Assembly: GCA_049317265.1 (NCBI GenBank)
Contig: JBMOIP010000012.1
Span: 4,612 to 68,611, forward strand
Direction of reading: 5' to 3'
DNA length: 64,000 bases
DNA from: Bacteroidales bacterium
GTDB taxonomy: Bacteria; Bacteroidota; Bacteroidia; Bacteroidales; FEN-979
The translations under genes were made by a program, and so were the position numbers. Below, in pieces: positions 11,610 to 34,454 of this stretch. The stretch's first letter is position 1; each line of letters starts with the position of its first letter. The notes under the pieces are model-generated. The model worked only from the letters and a program-made list of their open reading frames with translations. It was not told where the DNA came from and ran no database searches.

Positions 11610-11637
11610 AGAATTGTATTTAGCTGGAATTGCGCGG

Positions 11638-11723
11638 CAAAAGTACAAATTTACCCGCAAACAGAAGCCAGGAATTTTTTTCCATGCAACGCGACAGCCA
11701 AAAGAAAATATTTTCTACCTTTG
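11638..11723. promoter_or_regulatory. Divergent -7 promoter elements for DUF2723-lgt (minus) and tRNA-Gln (plus)
   Basis: TACTTTTG on minus strand at 11638-11645; TACCTTTG on plus strand at 11716-11723. Confidence 0.7.
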
Positions 11724-16262: not shown

Positions 16263-19127
16263 ATGAAAAATATTTGTTCATTCATCTTGTTTTTCGTCCT
16301 GGTTTCTGCAATACCCCCTGTGGGATTGGGACAACAAATACAAATACAGGTTCCCCTCGACGGAACAGAAACCTTCAGGCAGATCGTTGAAAAAAACCGG
16401 AACTACCTGAAAACCCTGCCCGATGATGCTGAAAAACTGCGGTATGAGAAGCACTTTGCGCGGTGGGCCTGGTATACCTCCTTGCACCTGGGACCAGCTG
16501 GCGAATTTGTCAACGTTCCCCAAAAAACACTTGACGCTTATAATCAATTAAACAGCTATGATGCACCACTCACCTCCGCAAACGGCTCCTGGAGTTTTGT
16601 GGGCCCTGCTTCAGACGTACTGGGGAACCCGAGTGCCGGATTAATGGGTCATGGTCGTGTTGACCGCATTGCATTTCATCCAACCGATGGAAATATTATT
16701 TATGTGGGAACACCGGCAGGAGGATTATGGCGAACAACCAATGCAGGCACTTCATGGACCGCCATTAGCAGTTATATTCCCTCGTTGGGGATTTCAGGGA
16801 TTGTGGTTGATCACAATGATCCCAATACACTTTATGTCCTCACAGGTGATGGTGATTCCTTTGAAGGGGGTTTTGTAAGCGCATTTGGTTATATCAGGAA
16901 ATCTATCGGGGTCATGGTTTCGCATGATGCCGGTGTAACCTGGCAAACCACCGGCCCCCTGTCGTCGATTGATTACTGTGGCAGCAAACTGATACAACAC
17001 CCCACAAACTCCAGTATTCTTATTGCAGCAACCACGGATGGAGTTTACAGAACAACCAATGGAGGCACCACCTGGACCCAGGTGACACCCGGAAGGTATT
17101 ATGATGTGGAGTTCAAGCCTGGAAGCCCGTCAACCGTTTATGCTTCTGGCAGAGGGTATTTCAGATATTCAACAAACACCGGTTCAACCTGGTTGTCAAG
17201 TACCTTTGATTATAATCTTTGTATTGGCAGGTCACAACTGGCCGTTACCCCAAATTCACCCGGCAAAGTTTACCTGCTGGCCGGACCGGCCACCAACGGG
17301 GATTTTACGTTTTGCGGATTCTATGTATCAACCAACAGCGGAGTATCATTTACCCGATTAACAACGGCTCCTAACATTCTTGGAAACGAAACCGGCTTTC
17401 AGGGTGATCAATCGGGTTACGACATGGGGTTAGATGTTAACCCCACTGACAATCAGAAGGTGGTAGCCGCCGGGGTAATAATCTGGAAATCGGCTAATGG
17501 CGGATCTACCTTTACTTATGGAACCACTTACGGCGATGGTCCGCATTACATTCACCCCGATGTTCATGACGTAGCCTATAACCCGCTGAACAATATAGTT
17601 TATGCTGCAACTGATGGGGGACTTTATGGCAGTATTGATAATGGTGCTAGCTGGGGAAATCTCTCTGCAGGCATCAATACCACACAGTTTTACCACTTGG
17701 ATGACTATGATGCCGATCCCAACTTCCTGCTGGGCGGATGCCAGGATAACGGAGTTAAATACCGGTACTACAACACCTCCGCATTTTCGCACCTTATAGG
17801 CGCCGACGGATTTGACGGCGCCATTGACTACACCAACGGGCTGATCGGCTACAGTACCTCCAACACAACCATCCTTCATTTCAGCAATTTTATCCTGACA
17901 TCACCAACACAGGTAGCAAAACCTGATGACTACTTTTTTCCACAGGTGGAGTTGAACACCAGCAACCCCGATGTGCTGTACTTCAGTTACAATACCATTT
18001 CAAAATATGTATTTTCAACTGGTACGACAACAGCCCTTGGATCCGGTTCCATTCTTGGTGCCTGGGTGCTCCGTACATGCCCCAGCAACAGCAACAGAAT
18101 TTATGCAGCCGGTGGATTGGATCCCTGGAGTTCAACCGGTTCTCTTTTTGAATCAGCCGACGGAGGATCAACCTGGACAACGTTGTCGGACAATACAGGC
18201 TTCCCTGCAACATTTCCTAGGATTTCGGACATCGGCGTCAGGCCTAACAATTCAGGGCTGGTCTATGTCTGTTTCAGCGGCTATACCGACGGATTGAAAG
18301 TGCTCTATTCAACCAACACCGGCAACACCTGGACCAATATCAGCTATGATCTGCCCAATATCCCGATCAACAGCATTGTGGTGGATCAAAACAACAACGT
18401 ATATGCAGGAGGCGACCTGGGTGTTTATTACCATGCATCGGGCAGCACAAACTGGGAACCGTTTTACAATAACATCCCCAATGTTCCGGTTACCCAGCTT
18501 TGCATCAATGAAAACAACGACCAGCTTCTCGCCGCAACATTCGGCAGGGGTGTCTGGAAAAGTACGCTCAGGGCGGCATGCCCTGCAGATGTTACCCTTG
18601 CCGGCAACCTGACCGGCAACTATTTCCGGTCGGCCTCCAATTCCATCACAGCCAGTGGCAATGTGATTGGAAGCACAGGCAATTCTGTGGTATTGCGGTC
18701 AAACAATTATGTTAAACTAACCTCCGGCTTCCAGGCTAGTTCTGATATTGGAAACAAGTTTCTGGGAACCCTGGGACCCTGCGACTCGGGCATGCCCCCG
18801 GCATTTTCTACCACACAGGAACAGGGACCTGTCTTTCCTGCCGAACTGAATGCCTACACAGTGGCGATAACCCGGCATGATGGAACCCTGGAAGTGGTTA
18901 CCGGTACCAATGGGCAGAAAGAGGTGCTGCTCCGGCAGTTCGCGCCCGGTACGGTAAAGATCATACTGGCCACACCCGGTGGACAGGTCATCCGCAATGT
19001 GGCTGATTTTACCGGCGAAAAAGGTAGTTCAACGTTTAACCTTGGGGCAGATACCGCCCCAGGCAATTACTACCTCTATCTTGTTGTGAACGGTAAGGTG
19101 ATGCATTTGCAGGAAGTAACCTTGTAA
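16263..19127 (+). CDS. Secreted BNR/Asp-box (VPS10/sialidase-like) beta-propeller protein
   Basis: Many SxD/NxGxTW Asp-boxes, HPDVH, GGCQDNG, GADGF, ATFGRGVW; C-terminal beta-stack module and degenerate CTD. Confidence 0.8.
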   Translation: MKNICSFILFFVLVSAIPPVGLGQQIQIQVPLDGTETFRQIVEKNRNYLKTLPDDAEKLRYEKHFARWAWYTSLHLGPAGEFVNVPQKTLDAYNQLNSYDAPLTSANGSWSFVGPASDVLGNPSAGLMGHGRVDRIAFHPTDGNIIYVGTPAGGLWRTTNAGTSWTAISSYIPSLGISGIVVDHNDPNTLYVLTGDGDSFEGGFVSAFGYIRKSIGVMVSHDAGVTWQTTGPLSSIDYCGSKLIQHPTNSSILIAATTDGVYRTTNGGTTWTQVTPGRYYDVEFKPGSPSTVYASGRGYFRYSTNTGSTWLSSTFDYNLCIGRSQLAVTPNSPGKVYLLAGPATNGDFTFCGFYVSTNSGVSFTRLTTAPNILGNETGFQGDQSGYDMGLDVNPTDNQKVVAAGVIIWKSANGGSTFTYGTTYGDGPHYIHPDVHDVAYNPLNNIVYAATDGGLYGSIDNGASWGNLSAGINTTQFYHLDDYDADPNFLLGGCQDNGVKYRYYNTSAFSHLIGADGFDGAIDYTNGLIGYSTSNTTILHFSNFILTSPTQVAKPDDYFFPQVELNTSNPDVLYFSYNTISKYVFSTGTTTALGSGSILGAWVLRTCPSNSNRIYAAGGLDPWSSTGSLFESADGGSTWTTLSDNTGFPATFPRISDIGVRPNNSGLVYVCFSGYTDGLKVLYSTNTGNTWTNISYDLPNIPINSIVVDQNNNVYAGGDLGVYYHASGSTNWEPFYNNIPNVPVTQLCINENNDQLLAATFGRGVWKSTLRAACPADVTLAGNLTGNYFRSASNSITASGNVIGSTGNSVVLRSNNYVKLTSGFQASSDIGNKFLGTLGPCDSGMPPAFSTTQEQGPVFPAELNAYTVAITRHDGTLEVVTGTNGQKEVLLRQFAPGTVKIILATPGGQVIRNVADFTGEKGSSTFNLGADTAPGNYYLYLVVNGKVMHLQEVTL

Positions 19128-19156
19128 GCCTTCCGGGAGGTCAATACAAAGTCCTC

Positions 19157-19194
19157 ATATCCAATGTAAGTAAGAAGTTCATATTGGATATTTT
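19157..19194. terminator. Inverted repeat, likely terminator after the 954-aa gene
   Basis: ATATCCAATGT...ATATTGGATAT followed by TTT. Confidence 0.45.
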
Positions 19195-19204
19195 CATTCG
19201 GCAT

Positions 19205-19296
19205 TCAATGAATGTATTTCTTTATCATTTCAAGTAACCCCTCTTTATTAATTGGTTTTGAGAATTAATCGTTGCACCCCGGTTCCAGGGCTTTCC
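19205..19296 (-). pseudogene. Remnant 3' end of a hybrid histidine kinase receiver domain
   Basis: Translates KALEPGCND*FSKPINKEGLLEMIKKYIH*, versus KALEAGCTDYISKPINKEGLLELIKKY at 28058-28141; 68/84 nt identical by manual alignment. Confidence 0.85.
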
Positions 19297-19816
19297 CAGT
19301 TTATAGCTTGAACTCTTTTTTCCTCCTTCTTTATTTCTACAGAAGTCCTGCATTTTTGAGGATTTTGGATGGCTTTGGCTGGTGTTCGGCAAACGCGCGA
19401 AGAGCATTAAGGGTTCCCAGGTGTTCCCGTTTCATGGGGACCAGGGAAAGTTTTCGGTTGCAGAAGGCCAAGCCGAATATGCTTACGACCATGTCGGAAC
19501 AATTACATCCAGGAATCCCTTGAAATTAATGACACTGCAAATGAATCTTCATTTGTTTTAAATCTTTTCTTCACCAAGTTTGGAAAATAAATATGCCATT
19601 TTCCGCCTTGTTAATTTCTGCAAATATTACATTAATTTTATTTTAAATATTTATAACATGAATGTTCAGTTTGCGTAGGTAAAAGGTCATGAAATTCCAC
19701 CCCGGCTGCAAGATAAAATGATGATTGCATTTGGTATTAATCTAAGGTCGTGGGACATAGAACATTCATTAGCATATTGACAACCAAGCCATTGTGATTT
19801 GATTAACAAGCCAGAG

Positions 19817-19878
19817 GTTAAATTACCATTAACTTTGGCTTAGGCGCTTGTATCCACAATCCGGCCAACATACTTTTG
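19817..19878 (+). promoter_or_regulatory. Promoter of the giant phosphatase gene with upstream 11-bp-spaced repeats
   Basis: -33 TTG (19848-19850), 20-bp spacer, -7 TACTTTTG (19871-19878); TTAA/TTAA/TTAG at 19818, 19829 and 19840. Confidence 0.6.
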
Positions 19879-19954
19879 TGCCATGTTCCTCTCCCCGGAG
19901 TCGGAAATGAGATAATTATATTATATCCATCATTCATTAACCAAACTTTTACCT

Positions 19955-22900
19955 ATGAGAAGATTTCTAGCTTTATTAATGCTTGTCGCGACCTTTTGGC
20001 CATGGTCCGGCAGAATGGAGGCTCAAACACCCTACACCACCGGTAACCTGGTGGTCTTAAGGGTCGGAGACGGCATTGCTGCACTCAGCAGTTCCTCCAC
20101 CGCCATATTCCTGGATGAATATTCCTCTACCGGAACCTGGGTCCAGGCACATCCCCTCCCCACATCCGGGGCCAATGTGTTTTCCAACTCAGGGAGTGCA
20201 ACGTCGGAAGGACAGATCACACTATCCCCTGACTCATACTATCTGCTCCTTGCCGGTTACAATACAGGGCCTGGATTAGCCAGCATCGCCAACACTTCCA
20301 GCGTTACCGTCAACCGTAAACTCCTGAGAGTCGACAACAGTGACGGTTATACTTTACAAACATCTTCCACCGCATTTAATGCCAATAATATACGCGGCGG
20401 GGTAACCAACGGAACCGATTTCTGGGCAGCTGGAACATCGGGGACTGCAGGCGCCAACGGTATACAGTACTTTGGAACCGGCACGCCCGTCCAGGTTAGT
20501 TCAACCATTACTAACACGCGCGTGGTCAATATTTTCAACAGTCAACTTTACTTCAGCACGGGGTCTGCTCCTGTCGGAATCTACGCAGTAGGCAGCGGAT
20601 TACCTGTTACTACTGGCAATGTCAGCTCCCTCGTTATAGCAGGTACCGGCACGTCCCCTTCTCCTTATGGTTTTTCATTCAACGCTGCAACCGACATCTG
20701 TTACATAGCAGATGACCGCACCGCTGCAAATGGCGGCGGAATCCAGAAATTCACTAAAACAGCAGGGATCTGGTCGCTTCAGTACACCCTTTCGGTGGGT
20801 ACTGTCGGAGCCCGGGGGCTGACCGTTGACTGGACAGGCGCTAACCCTGTTATTTATGCCACTTCAGCAGAAGGAAGTGCCAACCGCATTGTCAAGATCA
20901 CCGACACCGGCGCCGGTTCTATCTATTCCACGCTGGCCACCTCTGCAACCAACACAATTTTCAGGGGCATTGCCTTCGCACCGGTTCCAATGCCTTCACC
21001 AACAACCGCCACTCTTGCAGCCTCGTTGGTGGAAAGCACCTCTGCAACGCTGAATGGCACGGTCAATGCAAACAATGTTTCGACCACAGTGAGTTTTGAA
21101 TACGGTCTGACCGATGCTTACGGTACCACCGTAGCAGGTGTTCCTTCGCCTGTCACCGGCTCCTCCACTGTTTCCGTTTCAGCATCCATCATGGGCCTTA
21201 CCCCCGGCACCACTTACCATTTCCGTGTAACCGGCATCAGCGCCGGCGGTACTTCTTATGGAAGTGACCTTACCTTCACCACCATCGCGGCTTATACCGG
21301 CCCCACATCTTCTGCAACTCCCTATATCATTCCGCAGTCAGCCGGTGTCACCACCACATCCTTGCTGACTGTTCCGGATGCAATCGGCCCGTTTACCATG
21401 TGCGGAGTACCCGACGGCCTTGGCGCTTTCGATAACAACGACGGAACGTTCACCCTTCTCATGAACCATGAACTCGGGAACAACCTGGGTGCGGTTCGTT
21501 CACATGGCTCAATTGGCTCCTTTGTTTCAAAATGGATTATTAACAAGACAACACTAGCCGTTCAGAGCGGCAGTGACCTGATGGTCAACGTGAACCTTTG
21601 GGACCCCTTCACATCGACCTATACAACCTATAATTCTTCCAACCCCTCAATTCTTGCCCGTTTCGGCAGGTTCTGTTCCGCCGATCTTCCGGCTCCTTCA
21701 GCATTCCACAATAGTGGTGCGGGTGTAGGCACACCGGAACGCATCTTCATGACTGGCGAAGAGGTTAATGACGAAAGCAGGGGCATGGCCCATATCGCTA
21801 CCGGTCCAAACGCCGGAACCTCCTGGGAACTTCCCGCTTTGGGTAAAGGCGCCTGGGAAAATGAAGTCGCCTGTCCTGCTTCCGGGAACCGCACAGTTGT
21901 TGCACTGCTCAATGACGGCACCGATGGTCAGGTCTATTTCTATATAGGTCAGAAGACAGCTACCGGGAATGAAATCGAAAGAGCAGGTCTGACCAACGGT
22001 CATCCCTGGGGATTAATTGTTTCCGGCTTCCCTGTTGAACGCGTCAATGGCACTACGATCAATACTCCTCCATCTCCGGGTACAGCTTTTACACTCGTCG
22101 ATCTGGGAGATGTCCGTACCCTAACGGGTGCAGCCCTCAACACCCTTAGCAACACCAACGGAGTAACCAAATTCTCGCGTCCGGAAGACGGCGCATGGGA
22201 TCCGCAACACCCGAATGATTTTTATTTCAACACGACAGACCAGTTCGCAAACGGGTATAGTCGCCTGTGGAAACTGCACTTTACCGATATTCTGAACCCG
22301 CAACTCGGTGGGACCATAACCGCCGTTCTTGATGGAACGGAAGGTCAGAAGATGCTGGATAATCTCGCAATAGATCAGTACGGCCATATCATTCTTCAGG
22401 AAGATGTTGGCAGCAATGCACATAACGGTAAAATGTGGCAATATACCATCGCCACCGATAACCTGAAATTGGTGGCTGCCCATGATCCCTCCCGTTTCGG
22501 TGATATCGGGGTACCTGCTACTGCCCCATTTAACCAGGACGAGGAATCGTCGGGCATTATCGACGTACAGTCGATCCTTGGCCCGGGCAAATTCCTTACC
22601 TCTGACCAGGCACATTATTCAGTGCCTTTACCGGCAGTAGAAGGCGGACAATTATTGATGTTCTTCAACCCCGACACTTATGCCTCGAACCTGTGTGCTA
22701 CAACCTCCACAACCACGGTCAACACCTATACGAGCTATAGCTGGAATGGCAATACCTATACAACACCCGGTACCTACACCTACCATACCACCAATGTGGC
22801 AGGTTGCGACAGTACTGCCACTTTGATCCTGAACTTTGTCAATTTCCCGTTGCAGATCCTGCACGGATCGGATTTTGAAGCATCTACCGATGAAGTATCT

Positions 22901-25900
22901 TCGGCTCCTCGTTTTGCCGCAATTGTTGACTCGCTGGAGAACACCTATCCGAATTCAATCACCCTTGCATCAGGCGATAATTTCATCCCGGGACCTTTCT
23001 CTTTCTCAGGTGAGGATCCGCGCATGGTGCTGCCCTACAGGAACGCCTATGCCAGTTACTATAACAACCCGCTCAATCCTCCGTATGATCTTCGCGCCGG
23101 TATTGCAAGAGCTGATATCTCTATCATGAACTTCATCGGGGTTGAAGCATCTGTACTTGGAAACCATGACTTTGACTTTGGAACTCCCGAGCTTCGCAAC
23201 ATTATTGGCGGGAATATTTCAGGTTCAAGCGTACGCTGGTTTGGCGCCCAGTTCCCTTACCTGAGCTCAAACCTGAATTTCATGGCCGATCCCAATTTAA
23301 GTCCGGTGTTTACACCAATCCGCCAGGCCAACACAAATTTCATGTGCAGCCCGGCGAATACCCCGGCCCAGATTGCAGCGAAAAAGAAGCTCGCTCCCTA
23401 TTGTGTCATCATGAAGAACGGTGAAAAGATTGGAGTCGTTGGCGTTACCACCCCAATGCTCGAATCCATCTCCTCTCCCGGCACTACTACCGTGAAAAAT
23501 CCGGGAGCTGGAACGAATGATATGACCCTCCTGGCTACAATTGTTCAGCCTTATATCGATACCTTAATCAACATTGAAGGCTGTAGCAAGATCATCCTCC
23601 TTTCACATCTGCAACAACTTGCTTTTGAAAAAGAGCTGGCAACCAAACTGCAGGGCGTGGATATCATCATCGCCGGTGGTTCACACACCCTGATGGCTGA
23701 TGCTACCGACCGTCTGCGGGCCGGGGATGTAGCAATCGAAACCTATCCGTATCTGACTTCCGGACTGGATGGGAAACCCACAGCCATTATCAACACCGAT
23801 GGAAGCTATAAGTATGTCGGCCGTTTGGTGGTTGATTTCACCCCGGCAGGAGATATTGTTCCCGCATCAATCAACCCGGCAGTATCTGGCGCTTATGCCA
23901 CCGACCAGCAGGGTCTTCAGGATGTGTGGGGCGCAAATACCCCGCTGGCTTTTGCTCCAGGAACCCGTGGGTACAGGGTGAAGTTGCTTTGCGACTCGAT
24001 CGGATCTGCGATCCTCGCCAAAGATGGCAATCTTTTTGGTAAAACCAGCGTATTCCTCGAAGGACGTCGTAATTTCGTACGGACCGAAGAGACCAACCTG
24101 GGTAATCTTTCCGCCGAAGCCAATCTTTGGATGGCCAAATTCTATGATCCCTCCACTGTTATATCTATTAAAAATGGTGGCGGTATCCGTTCCATTATTG
24201 GGTATATCAACGCCTATGGTGACACTGTAATCTATCAGCCGCCCATCGCCAACCCGGCGGCAGGCAAACTGCAGGGAGATGTTTCCCAACTCGATATTGA
24301 GAATTCACTCCGCTTCAACAATCTTCTTTCATTGCTTACAGTTGATGCAGCCGGCCTCAGAAGAACGCTTGAACACGGCGTTTCCGCTACAGCGCCAGGT
24401 GCAACCCCGGGCCAGTTTCCTCAGGTTGCAGGTGTAAGGTTCAGTTACAACCCAACACTTCCGGTTTACAACCCAACGACCAATACAGGCGGACGTATTT
24501 TAACCGCAGTGATCACCAACGATTCCGGAACCGTTGTCCTGGATACACTCATCATGAATGGTGCGCTGTATGGCAATCCTTCCCGTACCTTTCGTCTTGC
24601 CACACTGAACTTCATGGCAGGCGGTGGTGACAACTATCCCTTCCCGATCATTGGAAGCAACAGGATCGACATCAACACGCTGCCGGTTCCCCCGGCCGTT
24701 CCAGGTGTAGCATCATTTGCAATTCCCGGTTCCGAACAGGATGCCTTTGCTGAATACATGAAAAGCCTGCATTCAACCTCACCATACAACAAGAGCGATC
24801 GTCCTGTCACCCAGGATTACCGTATCGAGAATGTTACGTTGCGCACAGACAGTGTACTTCCACGAAGTGTTTCCCTGTCAGTTTCATCAGGAACCGGAAA
24901 TGAGGCGAATCAGACCGTTATAACAGTTACTGCAGTATCTTCATTGCCTGTTCTTGGAAATCAAACCGTTACCGTTGCTGTTTCGGGAACAAATATCACG
25001 GCAGGTGATTATACGCTAAGCAATAACATCATTACCATACTGAATGGTCAGACCACCGGATCCGTCACATTTACGGTTACAAATGATGTATTGTTTGAAG
25101 GAACGGAAACAGCCGTGCTGACCATCAGCAATCCTTCAGCAGGACTGATCCCCGGCATCCCATTGTCGCAGAGCATATCCATCACAGACAATGATGCCAC
25201 CGTGGATCTTTTAACCTACGTCAGGATTGGCCGTTACGACCTCCCTGAACCCACGCGTACCGCTCCTCCGGCAAACAACCTGCTTGCCCAGGAAGCCTCA
25301 GCGGTTACCTATAATTGGGACACCCAAACTTTGTTTGTAGTTGGTGACGGCGGCACTTCAATTGTGCAGGTGACCAAAACAGGGCAACTGATCAACTCCA
25401 TGACACTGGCCCAGGGAAATAGTCCTCAGGGGACAGAATTTTATGATCCGGAAGGACTTACTTATATCGGAAATAACACTTTTGTAATGGTTGAAGAACG
25501 CGACCGTCAGACTGTAAAGTTCATTTACAATGCCGGCACCACTTTGACCAGGAGTATGGCCCAGACCGTCAAGTTAGGCACCTTTGTGGATAACATTGGG
25601 ATTGAAGGTTTATCATATGACCCCCAGACGGCAGGCTATATCTGTGTCAAGGAGAAGAGCCCTGAAGGAATTTTCCAGACAGGTATCGATTTCTCTGCAG
25701 GAACTGCAACGAATGGATCACCGACTACGGTAAATTCTGTCAACCTTTTTGATCCTGCACTGGCGAATCTGTCGGATTTGGCCGATGTCTTTGCACTGTG
25801 CAACCTGCCAGCGCTGACCGGACAGTCCAATTCAGGTAACCTGTTGTTATTGAGCCAGGAGTCTGTAAAGATTGAAAATATCGACCGGACTGGAGTCATC

Positions 25901-27961
25901 TCAAGTTCACTCACCATCGTCAATGATCCTGGTAATCCTTTATCAGCAGCAGAACATCAGCATGAAGGTATCACAATGGACAATGATGGCTTCATTTATA
26001 CGGTATGTGAGAATGGTGGAGGTGATTTTGATCATCCGCAAGTCTGGATCTACGCCCCTTCCACATTCATCTATGCAAACCAGGCTCCTCTTTCGGTGAG
26101 CATGGCAGCTTCTACCACAACATTAGCAGAAAACACCAGCACCGTGGCAAACATCAAACTTGGTTATATTGATATCAGCGACGACGGTATGGGCAGCAAT
26201 GACCTCAGTCTGAGCGGAGCCGATGCCGGTTATTTTGAGATCATCAATAACAATTTATATCTCAAAGCCGGTACTGTGCTGGATTACGAAACCAAGTCAA
26301 CCTATACAGTCACCGTTAATGTTAACGATGCGACCATTGGCAGCACTCCGGACGTCACTACGGTATTTACCCTCCATATCACGGATATTGTTGAAACCGC
26401 AACAGTCATTATCTCCGAGGTCACACCCTGGAGCAGCGGCAACAGCCCAATTGGCGCCGACTGGTTTGAAGTAACAAACACTGGAAACATCGCGGCAAAC
26501 ATTACCGGATGGAAAGTTGACGACAACTCAAACACCTTTGGTAACTCGTTAGCTTTGAATGGTATTACGAGTATTGCTCCGGGCGAATCTGTCATCTTCA
26601 TCGAAACTGCTAACCTGGCATCCACTTCAGCTACTTTCAGGAGCAACTGGTTCGGAGCAAATCCACCTTCAGGTTTGCAGATCGGAAACTATTCAGGAGC
26701 AGGAATTGGCCTCAGCACGGGTGGTGATGCAGTTAATCTTTACAACGCTTCAGGCGTTCTTCAGGCTAATGTTTCCTTCGGTACTTCTACAACAATAGCA
26801 CCTTACAGGAGCTTTGACAATGCTGCCGGTCTTAACAATGCTGTCATATCGCAGCTGAGTGCAGCGGGTGTTAACGGCGCATTTATTGCTGTGAACAGCT
26901 CCAACGAGATAGGTTCACCGGGAAGGATCTCTTGTCCTGTGGTTACACCAACCATTACGGGTGCTTTGACCTTCTGCGAGGGCAGTTCAACAGTGTTGGA
27001 TGCAGGTGCAGGCTATTCGAGTTACCTGTGGTCAACAACCGCGACAACTCAGACCATCACCGTCTCCTCTGCAGGCACATACACCGTCACTGTTACCACC
27101 GCAGCTATCTGCTACGGTACAGCTTCGGTCACTACCACTGTCAATCCTTCGTTACCGGTAAGTATTACCATTGTACCATCAGCGAACCCTGTCCTTACCG
27201 GCGCTTCTGTGACCTTCACAGCAACACCAGTTAATGGCGGGATCTCCCCTGCATACCAGTGGAATGTAAACGCTGCGATTGTATCTGGAGCGACAGACGT
27301 AACCTATACCTTTGTTCCCACTAATGGCGACGTGGTCAATTGCATCCTTACGTCAAATGCTGTGTGTGCGACCAACAACCCTGCGACATCCAACTTGGTG
27401 ACAATGATTGTCAGCACGATTCCCGCAATTACCGCAGTATCCGCTGATATCTCCAATGGACAAACAGAATGTTACAATGCAACGCAGACCATTACGGTTG
27501 GCGGCATCAACGGAACATTCAACATTCATAATGGCGGTAGCGCCACCATGATTGCAGGGGTGAATATTATATATGAACCCGGTACGGTTATTGAAGCTGG
27601 TGGTTACATGCACGGTTATATTGCTCCAGGAGGTCCGTGGTGCGGTGCCAAATCAGCCACTATTGTCACCACGGTTGATGAAGGTGAAACCAAATCACCG
27701 GCTTCATTTGAATCATCCTCCTTTGTGGTATACCCCAACCCCTCACATGGCGATTTCACAATCGAACAAAAAGGCAGTGAAATCTACAGCAACATCCACA
27801 TCAACATTTATGGAATGCAAGGGAACAAGGTCTACTCTAAGCAAAATCCCGGAAACCGCAGAACGGCATGCAGCCTCCAGGGCATTTCTGCAGGAATCTA
27901 TTACATCCAGGTCGTAGCCGATGGCAAAATCAGCAATCTCAAACTGGTTATAACCCGGTAG
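19955..27961 (+). CDS. Giant T9SS-secreted multidomain phosphatase (PhoX-like + 5'-nucleotidase + SdiA-regulated propeller + LTD + Calx-beta/cadherin/Ig)
   Basis: PhoX-type motifs NHE, FCS, GEE, WEN, RPED, DN, QED, ESSG. Metallophosphoesterase motifs SDFE, GDNF, GNHDFD, SH, GGSHT, plus 5'-NT C-domain (ETNLGNL, NGGGIR, FPQVAG). EASAVTYN...DPEGLTY; IISEV...DWFEVTN; VYPNP...AGIYYI CTD. Confidence 0.88.
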   Translation: MRRFLALLMLVATFWPWSGRMEAQTPYTTGNLVVLRVGDGIAALSSSSTAIFLDEYSSTGTWVQAHPLPTSGANVFSNSGSATSEGQITLSPDSYYLLLAGYNTGPGLASIANTSSVTVNRKLLRVDNSDGYTLQTSSTAFNANNIRGGVTNGTDFWAAGTSGTAGANGIQYFGTGTPVQVSSTITNTRVVNIFNSQLYFSTGSAPVGIYAVGSGLPVTTGNVSSLVIAGTGTSPSPYGFSFNAATDICYIADDRTAANGGGIQKFTKTAGIWSLQYTLSVGTVGARGLTVDWTGANPVIYATSAEGSANRIVKITDTGAGSIYSTLATSATNTIFRGIAFAPVPMPSPTTATLAASLVESTSATLNGTVNANNVSTTVSFEYGLTDAYGTTVAGVPSPVTGSSTVSVSASIMGLTPGTTYHFRVTGISAGGTSYGSDLTFTTIAAYTGPTSSATPYIIPQSAGVTTTSLLTVPDAIGPFTMCGVPDGLGAFDNNDGTFTLLMNHELGNNLGAVRSHGSIGSFVSKWIINKTTLAVQSGSDLMVNVNLWDPFTSTYTTYNSSNPSILARFGRFCSADLPAPSAFHNSGAGVGTPERIFMTGEEVNDESRGMAHIATGPNAGTSWELPALGKGAWENEVACPASGNRTVVALLNDGTDGQVYFYIGQKTATGNEIERAGLTNGHPWGLIVSGFPVERVNGTTINTPPSPGTAFTLVDLGDVRTLTGAALNTLSNTNGVTKFSRPEDGAWDPQHPNDFYFNTTDQFANGYSRLWKLHFTDILNPQLGGTITAVLDGTEGQKMLDNLAIDQYGHIILQEDVGSNAHNGKMWQYTIATDNLKLVAAHDPSRFGDIGVPATAPFNQDEESSGIIDVQSILGPGKFLTSDQAHYSVPLPAVEGGQLLMFFNPDTYASNLCATTSTTTVNTYTSYSWNGNTYTTPGTYTYHTTNVAGCDSTATLILNFVNFPLQILHGSDFEASTDEVSSAPRFAAIVDSLENTYPNSITLASGDNFIPGPFSFSGEDPRMVLPYRNAYASYYNNPLNPPYDLRAGIARADISIMNFIGVEASVLGNHDFDFGTPELRNIIGGNISGSSVRWFGAQFPYLSSNLNFMADPNLSPVFTPIRQANTNFMCSPANTPAQIAAKKKLAPYCVIMKNGEKIGVVGVTTPMLESISSPGTTTVKNPGAGTNDMTLLATIVQPYIDTLINIEGCSKIILLSHLQQLAFEKELATKLQGVDIIIAGGSHTLMADATDRLRAGDVAIETYPYLTSGLDGKPTAIINTDGSYKYVGRLVVDFTPAGDIVPASINPAVSGAYATDQQGLQDVWGANTPLAFAPGTRGYRVKLLCDSIGSAILAKDGNLFGKTSVFLEGRRNFVRTEETNLGNLSAEANLWMAKFYDPSTVISIKNGGGIRSIIGYINAYGDTVIYQPPIANPAAGKLQGDVSQLDIENSLRFNNLLSLLTVDAAGLRRTLEHGVSATAPGATPGQFPQVAGVRFSYNPTLPVYNPTTNTGGRILTAVITNDSGTVVLDTLIMNGALYGNPSRTFRLATLNFMAGGGDNYPFPIIGSNRIDINTLPVPPAVPGVASFAIPGSEQDAFAEYMKSLHSTSPYNKSDRPVTQDYRIENVTLRTDSVLPRSVSLSVSSGTGNEANQTVITVTAVSSLPVLGNQTVTVAVSGTNITAGDYTLSNNIITILNGQTTGSVTFTVTNDVLFEGTETAVLTISNPSAGLIPGIPLSQSISITDNDATVDLLTYVRIGRYDLPEPTRTAPPANNLLAQEASAVTYNWDTQTLFVVGDGGTSIVQVTKTGQLINSMTLAQGNSPQGTEFYDPEGLTYIGNNTFVMVEERDRQTVKFIYNAGTTLTRSMAQTVKLGTFVDNIGIEGLSYDPQTAGYICVKEKSPEGIFQTGIDFSAGTATNGSPTTVNSVNLFDPALANLSDLADVFALCNLPALTGQSNSGNLLLLSQESVKIENIDRTGVISSSLTIVNDPGNPLSAAEHQHEGITMDNDGFIYTVCENGGGDFDHPQVWIYAPSTFIYANQAPLSVSMAASTTTLAENTSTVANIKLGYIDISDDGMGSNDLSLSGADAGYFEIINNNLYLKAGTVLDYETKSTYTVTVNVNDATIGSTPDVTTVFTLHITDIVETATVIISEVTPWSSGNSPIGADWFEVTNTGNIAANITGWKVDDNSNTFGNSLALNGITSIAPGESVIFIETANLASTSATFRSNWFGANPPSGLQIGNYSGAGIGLSTGGDAVNLYNASGVLQANVSFGTSTTIAPYRSFDNAAGLNNAVISQLSAAGVNGAFIAVNSSNEIGSPGRISCPVVTPTITGALTFCEGSSTVLDAGAGYSSYLWSTTATTQTITVSSAGTYTVTVTTAAICYGTASVTTTVNPSLPVSITIVPSANPVLTGASVTFTATPVNGGISPAYQWNVNAAIVSGATDVTYTFVPTNGDVVNCILTSNAVCATNNPATSNLVTMIVSTIPAITAVSADISNGQTECYNATQTITVGGINGTFNIHNGGSATMIAGVNIIYEPGTVIEAGGYMHGYIAPGGPWCGAKSATIVTTVDEGETKSPASFESSSFVVYPNPSHGDFTIEQKGSEIYSNIHINIYGMQGNKVYSKQNPGNRRTACSLQGISAGIYYIQVVADGKISNLKLVITR

Positions 27962-28004: not shown

Positions 28005-30394
28005 TCATTGAGGCGGCCCTGTTTTTTCGTGGCCGGGACCGGCGCAGTTGAAAGAATTGTACTTTTTAATTAATTCAAGCAATCCCTCTTTGTTGATCGG
28101 TTTTGAAATATAATCGGTGCACCCGGCTTCCAGGGCTTTCCGGCGGTCTCCGGTCATACCATATGCCGTGTGGGCAATGATGACAACGTTGCTGTTAAAC
28201 ATCCTGATTTGCCGGGTGGCCTCATGGCCATTCATCCCGGGCATCCTGATATCCATCAAAATAAGATCGGTGTCGGGGTTTGCCCTGCAGACTTCAATGG
28301 CTTCAACACCTGTTTTCACCTGGATAATCTCGCTTGACAACCCTTTTACAACAATCGTGATCAATTGCCTGGATATTTCATCGTCCTCCACAACCATGAT
28401 CTTTATTTTGCGGGTTACGGCATTTGAAGATCGTGTTTTAACCTCGTTTGGTTCATTGGTTACCGGAGTTAAATTACAAGGCACTTTTTTTGCAGGAAGG
28501 GTAAACAGGAAAGTAGAGCCAACACCTACTTCACTTACAACGGACACCTCTCCTCCCAGCATTTCAACATAGGCCTTGGTTATTCCAAGTCCAAGACCAG
28601 CTCCCTGCCGAGCCATCTTATCCCCGATATCTGCCTGGATAAATCGCTCGAAGATCGCTTCCATGCGGTCTTCAGGAATCCCGATGCCAGTATCAGTCAC
28701 GAAAAACTCGAGGTGGTCGCTTTTTTTATGGTAACCGATCGCGATCGACCCATGGTCAGTAAATTTTATCGCATTTTTTACCAGGTTGGTCAGGATGATA
28801 TAGAGTTTTTCAGGGTCGGTATTAATGGTGGCCTCGTATGCCGGTAAAGTACTGATTAATGACAACTTCAATCCTTTTGCTTCGGCTTCGGGTTTAAAAA
28901 ATGTATAGATGTATTCGAGTTGTTCGTTGATGTTCGACATGTTTTCACAAACCTTCATCACCCCCGATTCAATCTTCGCTATATCGATGATGTCGTTGAT
29001 AATATTGAGCATCCGGTGACCACTCTTCTCTATGATGTGGATATAGTTGAGATACTGGTCGCCCGTAAGATCAGGCTCCTTAAGCAGTTCGGCAAAACCG
29101 AGAATCCCGTTCATCGGGGTTCGGATCTCGTGGCTCATGTTGGCAAGGAAGGCAGATTTTAGGCGGTCGCTCTCTTCTGCTCTCTCCTTGGCTTTAATCA
29201 ATTCGGCCTCAACTTGCTTGATGTCGTCAATGTTGCGGACATTCACGACAATGGCATTAATATAGGGATTGTTCAGGAAATTCTGGGCGACGGCTTCAAA
29301 CCAAACATATCCCCTGGTTTTGTGGATATGTCTGTATTGAACCTTACCAATAAAGTTGTAATCCGTCAGTATCTGGCTGAATGAACTCAAAACATGCTCA
29401 AAATCATCAGGATGAATGACATTGTCTATTGGTCCAAGCAACTCCTCCACAGTATATCCTGTTTCCCGCTCTCCTGCATCGCTCACGAAGAACTGCTCGC
29501 CGCTTGCATTGATAAGAACAAAGGCATCATTAGAATTTTTGATCATCAACCGGAGTTTCTCCTCACTCACTTCAGCCCGCTCCTTTGCTGCAACCAGCTC
29601 ATTCTCCGCTGTTTTTCGTGAGTTGATATCAAGAACAAATCCGTCGATGAATACATCCTCCGAACCCGGAAGCGTTATCAGTTTAGCATGGATCGACACC
29701 CAAATAATCGTTGCGTCCTGCCTGATGTATTGGGCATGATGGTCATGAACCGAACCGTTTTTCTTCAACAAATTCAGATATTCATCTCTTTTTTCCGGAT
29801 ATAACCAGATTTGGGAGTCAGGCCGGTTGATAAACACAAATGCTTCATCCAATGTTTTAAATCCTAAAATCATTTGAAGTGAATGATTCATGTGGATTAC
29901 ATTCCCATCAAGGGTTGTCCGGAACATCCCTTCAATAGCGTTGTCAAAAAGGTACCGGTAGTTTGTTCGCTTTGCCTGAAGGCCGCTTCAGCCTGTTTTC
30001 TGTCATGAATGTTCCTGCCGCTGAAAATATATTGTTTGGTGCCACTGTTTGTATCCTCCTTCAATAATTGTCCAATGACATCATACCAATAGTAATCACC
30101 ATTTACCCCACGCATCCTGAATTCAATTTCTTTTCTGCATGCGTCTTTGACCATGGAGGCAAACTCATTCATGGCCACAGGAACATCCTCATGGTGAACA
30201 AGTTCAAAAACATTTTTGCCAATCAAGTCATGCGTGTTATATCCCAGCTGAATGACAGATTCTGAAGAATACGTTATTATGCCTGAAGTATCAGTAATGA
30301 CAATCGCATCAACCATATTGCGGGTAACATCCTGCAGGATCCGGTTGGTTTCACGAAGCATCAGCAGTTCATCCTGTAGATTATTCTCTGCCAT
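28005..30394 (-). pseudogene. Cytoplasmic 3xPAS hybrid histidine kinase with receiver domain, split by a 1-bp deletion (pseudogene or sequencing error)
   Basis: Adding one A to CAA-AC-TAC (T run at 29962-29964 on plus strand) joins the two ORFs as ...QSEQNYRYLFDNAIEGMFRT..., about 796 aa. H-box [14 protein letters not shown] boxes, REC with EDD and MDIRMP. Confidence 0.85.
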
Positions 30395-30433
30395 GAGGTT
30401 GCTCTTTAATTATATTGGGTCTGGCTCTCAGTT

Positions 30434-33094
30434 TTAAAAATATTTATGAATTAATGTCATCAGTTCATCTTTGTTGATAGGTTTGGTGATGTGATCATTG
30501 CAACCGGCATCAATTGACTGTTCGCGGTCGCATGACAAACCAAATGCAGTTTGAGCGATGATAACCACATCCCGGTTGAATTTACGGATCTCCTGGGTGG
30601 CTTCGTATCCATTCATCCCGGGCATCCTGATATCCATCAGTACCAGGTCAATATCGGGATTATTGCGGCAAAATTCAACAGCTTCAATTCCGGTCCTTGC
30701 ATTGAGAATCTGCCTGGCAAATGGTTTAATTTTGATGGTAATCAACATCTCCGAGACTTCATCGTCTTCGGCAATTAATATTTTCAAGTCCGGGAGGTAA
30801 CTACCACTCCTCTCTTGAACCACCTCAATTTCTGCTCTGTGCATTTCCGTTGGTTCATCAGGATATGGCATCGTGAAATAGAAAATTGAACCTGTGCCTT
30901 CTTCCCCTTCAACCCATATCTTTCCACCATGCAGCTCCACTATTTTTTTGCAGTGCGCCAGGCCAATTCCGAGTCCGGGGTAATCACTGCTTTTATGCAG
31001 GCGTTTGAAAATGACAAAAACCTTATCGCGGTTCCTGGAATCAATGCCAATTCCATTGTCAGTGACCGAAAAAAGCCACTCCTTCTCACGCATTTCTGCC
31101 GACAGCCTGATGTGGGGCTGTATATCCTTTTTGCGAAATTTAATTGCGTTAGCGATCAGGTTCTGGAACAACAGTCGCAACTCCGTTTCATGACACTTAA
31201 CCGCAGGCAGCTCACCAACGGTAATTATCGCATTGCTTTCCCTGGTTAAATCTATTAAGTCAGCAAGTACTTCATCAACAATTTTCCTGCAGGCAACAAC
31301 TTTGGTCTCAATTTCGCTCCCCAAAACTGAATACTTCAGCAATCCGGTGACGAGTTCCCTCATCCTGGAGGATGCCTTGTAAATAAAATCGATGTATCTG
31401 ATACCATCATCATCAATTTTATCTGAATACTCTTCCTTAAGAAGCTGTGTGAAGTTGGTTAGTGTACGCAAAGGTTCCTGCAGGTCGTGCGAGGTGATGT
31501 AGGTGAATTGTTCTATTTCGCTGTTATGAAACAAAAGTTCCTTGTTCGATGCTTCAAGCTGGGCTGTTCGCTCTGCAATGCTGTTTTCAAGGGATTCATT
31601 TAATTTGCGAATCTCCTTTTCCGCCTTTTTCCGACCGGTAATATCATGCGATGACCATAATAGGTAGGCACATGACCCGCCAATTCCTGGCACAGGGATG
31701 ATGCTGACATCGGCGAAATAGCGTCCCATGGGCGTATCAATGTCCTCTTCGTAAAAAACAGGCTTGCCTGTTTTGATTGGTTCGTGAAAAAGGAGCAGTG
31801 TTGATTCCAGCAGATTGTCGTTAAGCCCGAGAATCTCATGAAGCAAATATTCGATTGGCTGCCCTGAAACGTTTTCAGCCGAGATATTGTAACCAAATAA
31901 ATGTGCTGAATCCAGGTACTGTCTGTTAATGGCAGCAATACGGAGTTCGCCACCAGGCTCCACCTTCATGAGCAACTGCCTGTCGTGGTTGTTGTTGAAG
32001 ATCAATGACAGCCGGTTTTCGCTCAGCCTTAACAACTCCTCAGATTGCTTGTGAGCTGTGATGTCCCTTGCCAGAAACACAATTCCAATGACAACTCCCT
32101 TGCGGTCCCTCAACGGCGAGCTTGAAAAAATGACAGGGATGACTTTTCCGTTTTTCGCGACAAGTTCACCATCCCGGCTTGTAATAGTATCATTTCCGGT
32201 GATTTGTTCCAACAGATGCACCGTGTTTGTGTCTTCCTGAAAAAGAGCAGAAATGAATGATCCTTCCAGTTCACCTTGTTCATAAATCAGTTTTTCTGAG
32301 GTGGCATTATTTATTTTAAGGATTGTACCTCCAGGTGAAAGCAGGATTAAAAATTCATCCATCGCAGAGATGATACTCTCCGCTGCAACCATTGGCGTGA
32401 TGGATAAAAACCTGTACTTATAAATTGAGTATAACACTCCAACTGTAAAAAAACAGATCAGCAGGTTTGCAATTGGAGGAAAACTGTAGATACCTGCAGT
32501 TTGCAGTATAACATCTGTCAGAGTTCCTGCAAAAATTGACACACAGGATGATAAGACAAAAATTATTGCCTGTTTTTTCTCATTGAGAACGGGTGTTTGC
32601 CGGCCATAATTATACATGATCACCATTGAAGCCAGGCTGAATATCAAATAGTAAGCATAAAACAGGGATGTGGTGATGGAATTCGTCCAGTCGAATGACC
32701 ATCCGTATGGCTGCCGAACCGGGTTTACGGACAGATTGTTTGAAAACTGATTATACAGAAAAAACAAGGGTATTCCCAGGATTAAGAACAAAAACCAACG
32801 ATTTGCAACGAGTTTAGCATTTTTTGAAAAGACAAGAGAAAAACAGAGTACGGCACTGGCAAATCCAATCCAGCCAATCGAAGCGATGTTCTGCATCATT
32901 TTCACGGTGTCTTCCGTAATGGATATGTCGTGATTGTGGGCAATGATATCTCCAAAATTCCACAAGGCGAAGCAAAGCAACAGGATTGAACAGGTCCGGT
33001 TTAACAATGACCTCGCATTTAAAAAAATGACATATACTGTCAGGAACAGGCATATGATAAAGGCCAAAAAATGCAGAAAGGGAAGAAAAATCAT
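30434..33094 (-). CDS. 7TM (HisKA_7TM-like) PAS-PAS hybrid histidine kinase with receiver domain
   Basis: Seven hydrophobic helices, two PAS-like regions, SHDLQEPLR H-box, NLIANAIKF, DNGIG, GIGLA, C-terminal REC. Confidence 0.9.
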   Translation of the reverse strand: MIFLPFLHFLAFIICLFLTVYVIFLNARSLLNRTCSILLLCFALWNFGDIIAHNHDISITEDTVKMMQNIASIGWIGFASAVLCFSLVFSKNAKLVANRWFLFLILGIPLFFLYNQFSNNLSVNPVRQPYGWSFDWTNSITTSLFYAYYLIFSLASMVIMYNYGRQTPVLNEKKQAIIFVLSSCVSIFAGTLTDVILQTAGIYSFPPIANLLICFFTVGVLYSIYKYRFLSITPMVAAESIISAMDEFLILLSPGGTILKINNATSEKLIYEQGELEGSFISALFQEDTNTVHLLEQITGNDTITSRDGELVAKNGKVIPVIFSSSPLRDRKGVVIGIVFLARDITAHKQSEELLRLSENRLSLIFNNNHDRQLLMKVEPGGELRIAAINRQYLDSAHLFGYNISAENVSGQPIEYLLHEILGLNDNLLESTLLLFHEPIKTGKPVFYEEDIDTPMGRYFADVSIIPVPGIGGSCAYLLWSSHDITGRKKAEKEIRKLNESLENSIAERTAQLEASNKELLFHNSEIEQFTYITSHDLQEPLRTLTNFTQLLKEEYSDKIDDDGIRYIDFIYKASSRMRELVTGLLKYSVLGSEIETKVVACRKIVDEVLADLIDLTRESNAIITVGELPAVKCHETELRLLFQNLIANAIKFRKKDIQPHIRLSAEMREKEWLFSVTDNGIGIDSRNRDKVFVIFKRLHKSSDYPGLGIGLAHCKKIVELHGGKIWVEGEEGTGSIFYFTMPYPDEPTEMHRAEIEVVQERSGSYLPDLKILIAEDDEVSEMLITIKIKPFARQILNARTGIEAVEFCRNNPDIDLVLMDIRMPGMNGYEATQEIRKFNRDVVIIAQTAFGLSCDREQSIDAGCNDHITKPINKDELMTLIHKYF

Positions 33095-33140
33095 TATACC
33101 TTATCGTTTTGAATTTACATATAAGACAATCTGTATTTTA

Positions 33141-34454
33141 TTAACTCACAATTGGTTCTATATTGTATGGCAATGTGAAGTAGAAAACTGAACCTTTGCC
33201 CTCCTCGCTTTCAACCCAAATTGTACCGCCAAGCATCTCAACGTATGCTTTCGTGATCGACAGGCCCAATCCGGCTCCCTGCCGTGCCATTTTATCTGCA
33301 ATATCAACCTGGATAAAACGCTCAAATATGATATTCTTGTTCTCATTGGAAATGCCAATACCCGTGTCTTTAACATAAAATTGCAAAAACCATTTATGCT
33401 TATGATCAATAATTTCGTAGCCGATCTCTATTTCTCCGTGGTCTGTGAATTTTATTGCATTTTTAACCAGGTTGGTAAGGATGGCATAAACCTTTTCCTT
33501 GTCGGTCCTTATGACGGACTCATTGTGCGGCAACGTGACTTTCATTAAAAACCGGATCCCCCTGGCTTCAATTTCCGGTTTAAAAAAATGATAGATGTAT
33601 TCGAATTGTTCGTTTATATTCGATTCGGTGAGGGTAATTTTCATGAGCCCAGCTTCTATCCTCGAGATGTCAACAATATCGTTAATGATGTTCAGCATCC
33701 GGGCTCCGCTTTTCTCGATCATACCAACGTACAATTGCTGAAGGTCACCGCTAAGGTTAGGCTCTTTCAGCAACTCTGCAAAACCGAGAATCCCATTCAT
33801 CGGGGTCCTGATCTCATGCGACATATTGGCAAGGAATGCTGATTTCAGCTTGTCAGCAACCTGTGCCTTTTTATGTTCATTGATGTAGAATCGTAAAGCG
33901 ATATTGATCAGAAATATGCTGATGAAGAAATAGATGATCATCCCAATATAAAGATCAGAAAGCCGGGTAAAATCATTTGGATATTTCTCAATCATGCCTG
34001 GATTGTAATACTCTATTGCAAAGAGAACCGTGATATTGGCTAATAAAATACAAGATGCAATCAGTTGGATATAGCTTTTAAAGAACACAATGATAAATGA
34101 TTCCAGCACAATAAAAAGATAGAGTACCGGCCCTGTTGATCCGTAATTAATAAACCATTGGAAATTAACTATGAATACAGAGAATGCTATAAGGGCATAT
34201 TTAGAAACAACAAATCGGTTCCACATCCTGCTATAGATGTAACCAAGTAAAAAGAGAATGGTGGGAATGCCCGTTGAAATAGTCGTTGGCCAACCGAGAT
34301 TCAATGCATAATTGGTCAGTGTTGCAAAAAAACAAATCAATAAGTCAAGCAGTAAGAGAATCAGTACAAGATAGTTGTCGAATCCAATTTCATCTGGACT
34401 TTTAAAGAGGTATTGACTTATCCTTGTTTTCAAGCCGCGCTGGTTTAAGATCAC
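33141..34454 (-). CDS. Membrane-bound sensor histidine kinase
   Basis: About six TM helices, [32 protein letters not shown]; GTG start. Confidence 0.9.

Follow-up and report, generated by a model that had tools for sequence, protein, structure and literature searches.

What does a bacterium gain from a single secreted protein of 2668 amino acids (aa) that joins two unrelated phosphatase-type domains to propeller, cadherin-like and lamin-tail domains? The question is raised by a 64,000-nucleotide stretch of a freshwater Bacteroidales genome (GenBank assembly GCA_049317265.1, contig JBMOIP010000012.1, positions 4,612 to 68,611 of the forward strand), here called the window, in which open-reading-frame analysis finds one open reading frame (ORF) at 19955..27961 on the + strand (2668 aa plus stop), with a start context, CCTATGA, that is kept in orthologs. 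The domain order is signal peptide, six-bladed beta-propeller, FN3-like domain, PhoX-like domain, variant 5'-nucleotidase and Calx-beta-like domain, followed by a cassette of SdiA-regulated, cadherin-like and lamin-tail domains, an Ig/PKD-like region and a type A C-terminal sorting domain (CTD) of the type IX secretion system (T9SS). Pfam and NCBIfam scans of the whole protein, with additional Pfam scans of ten separate pieces, agree with the single ORF and the domain list of an earlier note made from the DNA letters alone, and the positions given there for the PhoX-like domain (~21300-22680), the 5'-nucleotidase (~22840-24855) and the SdiA-regulated domain (~25200-26060) hold to within a few codons. 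We conclude, as a solid assignment, that the protein is a member of a large, uncharacterised modular phosphoesterase class that is widespread and not rare. It is probably a secreted multi-enzyme tool, exported by Sec and T9SS, that would free phosphate from extracellular organic phosphorus. The evidence set out below directly shows what the domains are and how they fold, that key residues are conserved, that signals for export are present and that the modules recur in other proteins.

The genome is a metagenome-assembled genome (MAG) of 164 contigs (5.2 Mb, 93.8% complete), and the G+C content of the window at 20001-24000, the 5' half of the gene, is 0.51-0.53 against 0.42-0.46 in the flanks. 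Both points would suit an assembly artefact that joined genes of different organisms, a possibility already raised in the earlier note; the high G+C content could also reflect amino-acid composition, or a foreign origin. Against an artefact stand four relatives (2449-2817 aa, 78-85% identity) that share the domain order, at least two of them on contigs of separately named MAGs. Contigs of four freshwater metagenome runs, all from one study that possibly includes the source sample, match the gene at 99-100% and span every domain junction without joints or alternative forms. Each domain is single-copy in the genome, and the nearest named records are uncultured Bacteroidales or Bacteroidota MAGs. 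The ORF is real and not chimeric, and an artefactual origin is hardly credible.

Both ends of the protein point to export. A Sec-type signal peptide, read off the sequence, occupies aa 1-23 (MRRFLALLMLVATFWPWSGRMEA; 19955..20023, +) and has no lipobox Cys. The consensus for twin-arginine translocation (Tat) is RRxFLK, and the signal peptide departs from it because FL comes directly after RR. The type A CTD at the other end (aa 2592-2668; 27728..27958, +) is recognised by Por_Secre_tail (Pfam ID PF18962; aa 2592-2666, 42.9 bits against a cut-off of 27) and by TIGR04183 (34.2 bits against 23). Matches to T9SS CTDs were found in at least 150 of 319 candidates scored in the genome, with open frames of up to 4019 aa; the use of T9SS by this genome is judged from these CTD matches, not from genes of the T9SS machinery. 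With a signal peptide, a type A CTD and a CTD-rich genome, the protein has the make-up of a type A T9SS cargo. The T9SS-exported multi-phosphatase proposed in the earlier note holds in this respect; the sequence further indicates two phosphatase-type domains with apparently intact active-site positions, and other modules that may be catalytic come in addition. The T9SS cargo set is unusually large for a 5.2-Mb genome.

The PhoX-like domain (aa 446-912; 21290..22690, +) is assigned from the predicted fold and residue mapping. The PhoX family (Pfam ID PF05787) reaches 18.7 bits in the whole protein, under the cut-off of 24, and 27.5 bits when aa 446-912 are scanned alone, a partial match to profile positions 231-464 of 515. 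Structure prediction per domain, which the earlier note had suggested as a check, gives confident models for this domain and for the N-terminal propeller. The AlphaFold2 model of the PhoX-like domain has a pLDDT of 94.1, and its top Foldseek match is the Pseudomonas fluorescens PhoX (PDB ID 4a9v, E value 3.7e-15, TMq 0.66; PDB ID 3zwu, 1.3e-14), with the next-best fold eight orders of magnitude behind (E value 5e-7). With VIA, the model matches PhoX with a Z score of 26.7 and a root-mean-square deviation (rmsd) of 3.3 over 386-388 of 467 residues, whereas about 280 residues are aligned to other six-bladed propellers. The predicted fold is thus that of the PhoX propeller with the PhoX-specific elaborations.

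Canonical PhoX proteins were sought in genomes of the same phylum, where 9 of the 121 sampled have a PF05787 match, two of them full-length (L001 and L002) and beginning with SR(R/K)xFLK. A profile of the subfamily to which our domain belongs scores 42.9 and 25.7 bits on these two, and has no match in those longer proteins from class relatives that are positive for PF05787 (L003-L009). L001 aligns to the PDB PhoX sequences and places the cysteine of its NCA(N/G)G motif at 179 in the 3zwu index, in agreement with the number 179 that we assume for the PhoX thiolate Cys. Residue equivalences were chained from the subfamily alignment through L001 to PDB PhoX (3zwu/4amf numbering). By this route C179 of the P. 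fluorescens enzyme corresponds to C574 of the 2668-aa protein, the E-E pair after C179 to E602/E603, the Glu of KHEN to E635 in an H/W-E-N motif, D292 to D654, R385 of DRPE to R742 of SRPE, the D-N/D-G motif to D802 and the E-D/T-D motif to E816/D817; E744 is also listed as a key residue. All mapped key residues are invariant in 39/39 subfamily sequences, and the ligand motifs follow one another in the order claimed in the earlier note wherever the positions could be anchored. The active-site residues of PhoX include D292 and R385 according to PMC11098088, and a thiolate ligand is mentioned in PMC4223295.

The P. fluorescens-type PhoX and this domain have in common the propeller fold with its specific additions, residues corresponding to C179, D292 and R385, and several motifs of acidic residues. 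The former is a stand-alone Tat enzyme, whereas here the domain lies within a longer polypeptide that has a Sec signal and a T9SS CTD. The relatives of the domain are many, with 5141 proteins at E values of 1e-3 or below among 8000 scored candidates. The 120 matches listed show 51-68% identity, which in nearly all of them extends over 97-100% of the domain, and most have about 700 aa, end in a T9SS CTD and are annotated as hypothetical. Four stand-alone relatives that were inspected start with a Sec-type signal, and Niastella vici is a named carrier of a stand-alone PhoX-like protein. From sequence comparison, the domain appears to represent a separate, very large, Bacteroidota-centred subfamily, mostly annotated as hypothetical, that has apparently given up Tat. 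In some T9SS proteins (P0016, P0033, P0095, P0105 and P0108), PhoX-like domains of this subfamily stand two or three in tandem.

The variant 5'-nucleotidase follows at aa 963-1642 (22841..24880, +). Its C-terminal half matches 5_nucleotid_C (Pfam ID PF02872; aa 1363-1562, 63.7 bits against a cut-off of 23.6), NCBIfam 5'-nucleotidase models additionally cover the N-terminal half (aa 1051-1305), and the domain aligns to the Thermus thermophilus structure (PDB ID 2z1a, E value 1.7e-24) and to CD73-type enzymes, with GNH(D/E)FD, SH, NGGGIR and NF..GGD conserved in the 2z1a alignment. The motifs of the metal site are D973-x-E975, G-D1008, G-N1070-H1071-D, H1218 and G1242-S-H1244, so that GD, GNHD and H1218 are present from the five-motif metallophosphoesterase set (DxH, GD, GNH(E/D), H and GH), which is not complete. 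Over 67 related domains aligned locally, GD, GNH(E/D)FD, the two Arg of (E/R)R..R, NGGGIR, the F of RFNN and the F of NF..GGD.Y are fixed in 66-67. The same holds for R1372, R1376, R1412, F1454 and F1553 in the C-terminal domain, Arg and Phe residues to which we attribute nucleotide-binding roles by assumed analogy with Escherichia coli UshA. Motif I is D-x-E (D973-F-E975) with Glu in 66/67 and Asp in 1/67, the Asp column having 14 alignment gaps. The first His position of motif V is Gly in 67/67; two residues past it there is Asn in 40 and His in 27, the latter being H1244 in our protein. The canonical 5'-nucleotidase paralog of the same genome (L010) has DMH and GGHSH at these positions, and the domain therefore belongs to a clade of its own, whose metal site is changed.

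The 5'-nucleotidase clade has 2521 matches among 7999 scored candidates and includes stand-alone proteins of about 710 aa and many choice-of-anchor I fusions, some of which JGI calls "alkaline phosphatase". In many of the latter proteins (about 1200-1400 aa, PF22494 plus PF02872), a type found in cyanobacteria and other bacteria, the 5'-nucleotidase domain is about 50% identical to ours. The choice-of-anchor I domain (Pfam ID PF22494) itself has no match in the whole protein or its pieces, and its N-terminal place is taken here by the PhoX-like domain and the unnamed propeller. The UshA family has the same two-domain layout and conserves GD, GNH(E/D), SH, NGGGIR and NF..GGD, but its motif I is D-x-H and its motif V begins with His. 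YfkN-type proteins of Bacillus subtilis (NF006937/NF006935) are likewise secreted, cell-surface fusions of more than one phosphoesterase module; they join two modules of the same family, whereas the 2668-aa protein joins unrelated folds. NF006937 is the best NCBIfam match, but with 110.2 bits against a cut-off of 2554 it does not place our protein in that family. YfkN itself is under Pho regulation.

Two phosphatases on one polypeptide were read in the earlier note as a hedge on metal availability, in which one enzyme works when the metal of the other is scarce, a conjecture that we regard as unlikely. Canonical 5'-nucleotidases use a dinuclear site different from that of PhoX, which speaks for hedging, as does the fact that the two domains here are unrelated folds. 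PhoX uses Fe3+ and Ca2+, according to PMC4223295. The 5'-nucleotidase clade, on the other hand, has swapped His ligands for Glu and Gly, and its metal may be a hard cation as in PhoX; because the ligand set is altered, the metal need not differ in kind from the Fe3+/Ca2+ of PhoX. Metal needs are, moreover, already spread over separate genes in this genome, namely PhoA, an NPP/PafA-like gene and the canonical 5'-nucleotidase. Hedging also leaves copies of the same domain unexplained, as in P0016 and P0033, each with three PhoX-like domains, or P0021 and P0022, each with two 5'-nucleotidase domains. The altered 5'-nucleotidase site and the frequent tandem copies fit dosage and co-localisation on one secretion signal better than hedging.

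The conservation of both domains also bears on whether the protein is an enzyme at all. Cadherin-like, Calx-beta-like, FN3 and Ig-like domains are typical of adhesins, two metal ligands of the 5'-nucleotidase are changed, and very many giant T9SS proteins are found in the genome, all of which would suit a non-catalytic surface or adhesion protein whose enzyme-like domains have turned into binding modules. Against this, the active-site positions are invariant over what amounts to hundreds of millions of years of divergence (PhoX-like 39/39, 5'-nucleotidase 66-67/67), and the ligand changes are clade-wide, unlike random decay. We therefore consider adhesion alone very improbable, and continue with the multi-enzyme explanation.

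The first ~352 residues have no match in the Pfam scan. For aa 24-345 (20024..20989, +), an AlphaFold2 model based on a 30-sequence alignment (pLDDT 94.5) predicts a six-bladed propeller of the YWTD/NHL/TolB kind belonging to an unnamed family. The best structural match is the YWTD propeller of PDB ID 1npe_A (VIA Z score 23.5, rmsd 2.9, 249 residues), Foldseek TM-scores do not exceed 0.59, and the searches with Foldseek, VIA and the ESM Atlas return generic propellers or clusters named "hypothetical protein", with no enzyme standing out. A HMMER search of 1.84 billion cluster representatives finds 3606 relatives at E values of 1e-3 or below and 1201 at 1e-30 or below. Stand-alone members have about 370 aa with a PEP-CTERM or T9SS signal at the end, and the propeller also heads many multidomain proteins or occurs repeated; among 160 local matches, it is present once in 123, twice in 32 and three times in 5. 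Four arginines (R99, R125, R167 and R265, domain numbering) do not vary and a fifth, R315, hardly does. Each of the five opens a strand, which suggests an anion-binding face in the modelled structure.

The cassette consists of a SdiA-regulated (YjiK-like) propeller (aa 1753-2040; 25211..26074, +), a cadherin-like domain (aa 2041-2146; 26075..26392, +) and a lamin-tail domain (LTD; aa 2147-2300; 26393..26854, +). The propeller matches SdiA-regulated (Pfam ID PF06977) over aa 1777-2019 with 137.6 bits against a cut-off of 21, or 143.7 bits when scanned alone. The LTD (Pfam ID PF00932) matches over aa 2148-2275 with 57.8 bits against 34.3, or 64.6 bits when scanned alone, and Cadherin (Pfam ID PF00028) falls slightly short with 27.2 bits against 28.8. 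The propeller is similar to the C-terminal domain of E. coli YjiK (PDB ID 3qqz_A, E value 1.3e-9 over aa 31-270 of the piece) and shares with it the ERD, EGL, KEK and EG..D motifs. The earlier note took the propeller as a candidate third hydrolase; many of its acidic residues are invariant, but YjiK, the one relative with a solved structure, is itself without known function. In the ESM Atlas, the nearest named clusters to the SdiA-regulated domain carry Phytase-like (Pfam ID PF13449; 0.90).

The full cassette is found in 97 of the 119 listed relatives, its parts being contiguous and in the same order in 97/97, so that the YjiK-type propeller is locked into the propeller-cadherin-LTD arrangement. 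When the 97 are aligned together, the 96 other cassettes are 55-90% identical to ours (median 65%). Conservation reaches 97% or more at 116 of the 553 positions, many of them Asp, Glu, Asn or Arg in the propeller. The source names include cyanobacteria, Verrucomicrobiota, Planctomycetes, Alpha- and Gammaproteobacteria and Bacteroidota, and among the carriers named are the cultured Prosthecobacter fusiformis, P. debontii, Calothrix sp. NIES-2098 and Cyanobium gracile. The cassette is accompanied by this 5'-nucleotidase clade in 55 of the 97 proteins, by a PhoX-like domain in 31, by both in nine (P0002-P0005, P0007, P0032, P0038, P0040 and P0042) and by neither in 20. Since these proteins were gathered through their similarity to the query, the counts characterise the class and do not show how frequent it is. 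In many of the 97, precomputed annotations also give PhoD, choice-of-anchor I or EEP nuclease domains. Four more of the 119 listed relatives have both phosphatase-type domains without the full cassette, and fusions are thus commoner than the earlier note had assumed in calling PhoX and 5'-nucleotidase usually separate proteins. An ortholog that is 88% identical (P0006; L012:1759-7218, 1819 aa) keeps the N-terminal propeller, FN3, PhoX-like, 5'-nucleotidase and CTD, but lacks the region from Calx-beta to Ig (Calx, SdiA, cadherin, LTD and Ig). Because the whole region is missing there, the cassette appears to be gained or lost as a block.

We tentatively suggest, with rather more doubt than confidence, that the cassette is a functional unit, so far unrecognised, for acquiring phosphorus outside the cell, acting as a Ca-dependent phosphodiesterase or in the capture of polyanionic organophosphates such as DNA, with the N-terminal propeller as a second binder of phospho-ligands. 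If this were so, a complete extracellular line to capture, cut and dephosphorylate would lie on one polypeptide.

The LTD invites a different reading, in which the protein serves nucleic-acid foraging: extracellular DNA or RNA would supply nucleosides, taken up for their carbon and nitrogen, while the polymer or oligonucleotides would be held by the LTD cassette and the phosphatases would strip terminal and nucleotide phosphates. LTDs are found in extracellular nucleases, and LTD nucleases mark DNA-degrading bacteria, according to PMC8289736; the Flavobacterium johnsoniae EndA2 described in PMC8115612 is a further example. Cassette relatives fused to EEP nucleases and named ExeM/NucH (P0040 and P0104) would also suit foraging, as would the intact nucleotide-binding residues of the 5'-nucleotidase domain. 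The ExeM/NucH extracellular nucleases share the LTD with our protein, but no nuclease domain was detected in the 2668 aa by the Pfam scans. DNA binding by bacterial LTDs is not demonstrated in the literature found, and PhoX enzymes are general monoesterases according to PMC4223295. We judge foraging as the principal role to be improbable, and return to phosphate release as the favoured explanation.

As to the activities, metals, substrates, surface location and physiological role, we infer the following. The protein would be exported by Sec and T9SS and would probably be surface-attached or released. The PhoX-like propeller would act as a phosphomonoesterase with a PhoX-type metal centre; since the protein does not use Tat, this centre would need to be put together outside the cytoplasm. 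The variant 5'-nucleotidase would dephosphorylate nucleotides at a dinuclear site in which one His has become Glu and another has been lost. The N-terminal propeller and the cassette would be conserved accessory modules, serving the capture of polyanions such as nucleic acids or an extra hydrolytic step. With a single CTD for all modules, the activities would be secreted and co-localised in fixed proportion. Taken together, the domains seem to serve phosphate scavenging outside the cell, probably with scavenging of nucleosides as well. Consistent with this, F. johnsoniae responds to phosphate depletion by inducing a distant PhoX-like lipoprotein together with an fn3 plus LTD nuclease, as stated in PMC8115612.

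Several observations weigh against this explanation. The sequence identity to solved PhoX is 12-15%, and HMMER searches of the PDB with the single sequence and with a 39-sequence profile missed PhoX, returning chance or CTD matches only; the fold comparison and the intermediate sequence were therefore needed. The comparison of the subfamily with the two canonical PhoX by hhalign gives a probability of 48% and an E value of 1.8e-4 over 315 columns. The VIA Z score for PhoX (26.7) hardly exceeds that for other propellers (25.4), and because it barely separates them, the PhoX assignment rests on the aligned length and on Foldseek. PhoX takes up its Fe-Ca cofactor in the cytoplasm, hence its export by Tat, in the account given in PMC4223295. 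In the 5'-nucleotidase, two canonical metal ligands are altered (Glu for His, and one His lost), and PF00149 is not detected by Pfam in the whole protein or its pieces, a further difference from the UshA family. No Pho-regulon genes are among the neighbours in the window, and a pattern search of the genome shows that the conserved block upstream of the gene, described below, is absent at pstS and other phosphorus loci.

The remaining parts of the protein are less clearly assigned. The FN3-like domain (aa 346-445; 20990..21289, +) scores 26.8 bits for fn3 when scanned alone, just above the cut-off of 25, and the region also has matches to Pur_ac_phosph_N and PhoD_N under their cut-offs. A short Thr/Tyr-rich, Cys-bounded linker domain (aa 913-962; 22691..22840, +), for which the Pfam scan gives no match, recurs before the 5'-nucleotidase in relatives. 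The Calx-beta/LapA-like Ig-fold domain (aa 1643-1752; 24881..25210, +) has weak Pfam matches (Calx-beta 21.6 bits against a cut-off of 27) and is present as repeats in relatives. The Ig/PKD-like spacer region (aa 2301-2591; 26855..27727, +) shows weak matches to PKD (19.6 bits against 23.5) and PKD_3.

The gene is preceded by an 827-bp spacer (19128-19954) without an ORF of at least 100 aa, in which conserved blocks occupy the last 160 nt. The putative promoter region (19803..19878, +) consists of TTAACA..GTTAAATnnnCATTAAYT (19803-19835) and TAnnTTTG (19871-19878), the latter about 80 nt before the start, which we take to be the Bacteroidetes -7 element. The orthologous loci L012 and L013 have the same blocks with few or no changes, and a comparison of the ORF lists of these two loci shows no obvious common neighbours. 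GTTAAATnnnCATTAAYT occurs exactly twice in the genome, and 38 sites have at most two mismatches. Three others of these have TAnnTTTG at the same spacing near an ORF, encoding a biotin carboxylase, an unrelated T9SS protein and a TPR histidine kinase. The upstream regions of the three pstS-like genes show no convincing common motif, and that of an NPP-like gene on C58 shares only TTAAC(A/T)TTGGCT with the spacer of the giant gene. Neither the neighbours nor the search with the upstream block gives evidence of phosphate regulation, and the public runs listed as holding the gene include no RNA run.

The phosphorus genes found in the genome are one PhoA, one NPP/PafA-like and three PstS-like; no PhoD was found in the genome, and the six-frame search gave no match to canonical PF05787. 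A canonical 5'-nucleotidase (C53:7544-7921, +; 516-aa frame) and a PhoA-type alkaline phosphatase (C53:11248-12345, -; 478-aa frame) are no more than about 4 kb apart and may form a phosphorus-acquisition locus. In the window, the upstream neighbour of the giant gene is a BNR/sortilin-Vps10-like protein of 954 aa (16263-19127, +), and a TMEM260-like O-mannosyltransferase with TPR repeats (1040 aa) is encoded at 8538-11660 (-). Two overlapping ORFs of 225 and 196 aa at 12839-14060 (+), the second with a terminal T9SS CTD, may be one frameshifted gene or two small cargo genes. Downstream of the giant gene, and pointing towards its 3' end, are three sensor kinase genes in a row (28005-34454, -), of which two encode hybrid kinases that have PAS and receiver domains; a small PAS-only ORF lies at 29897-30394.

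The earlier note had allowed for the architecture being already common and characterised, and the two halves of this fare differently. It is common, as the 97 cassettes among the 119 listed relatives indicate, but the literature search, which did not extend to supplements, found no publication on this architecture, its parts or the function of the SdiA-regulated domain. The interest of the 2668-aa protein lies chiefly in what it opens up, namely the cassette, the PhoX-like clade with Sec/T9SS export and the 5'-nucleotidases of the DxE clade. Models of organic phosphorus turnover in lakes, soils and oceans usually rely on PhoA, PhoX, PhoD and PafA, markers that miss the Sec/T9SS PhoX-like clade, the 5'-nucleotidase clade with its altered metal site, the unnamed propeller and the extremely conserved cassette. 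If the PhoX-like domain is active, an iron-calcium centre of the PhoX type would be assembled outside the cytoplasm, contrary to the current explanation of why PhoX is exported by Tat, and if the parts are active, surveys of phosphatase genes would miss a major share of the capacity of Bacteroidota.

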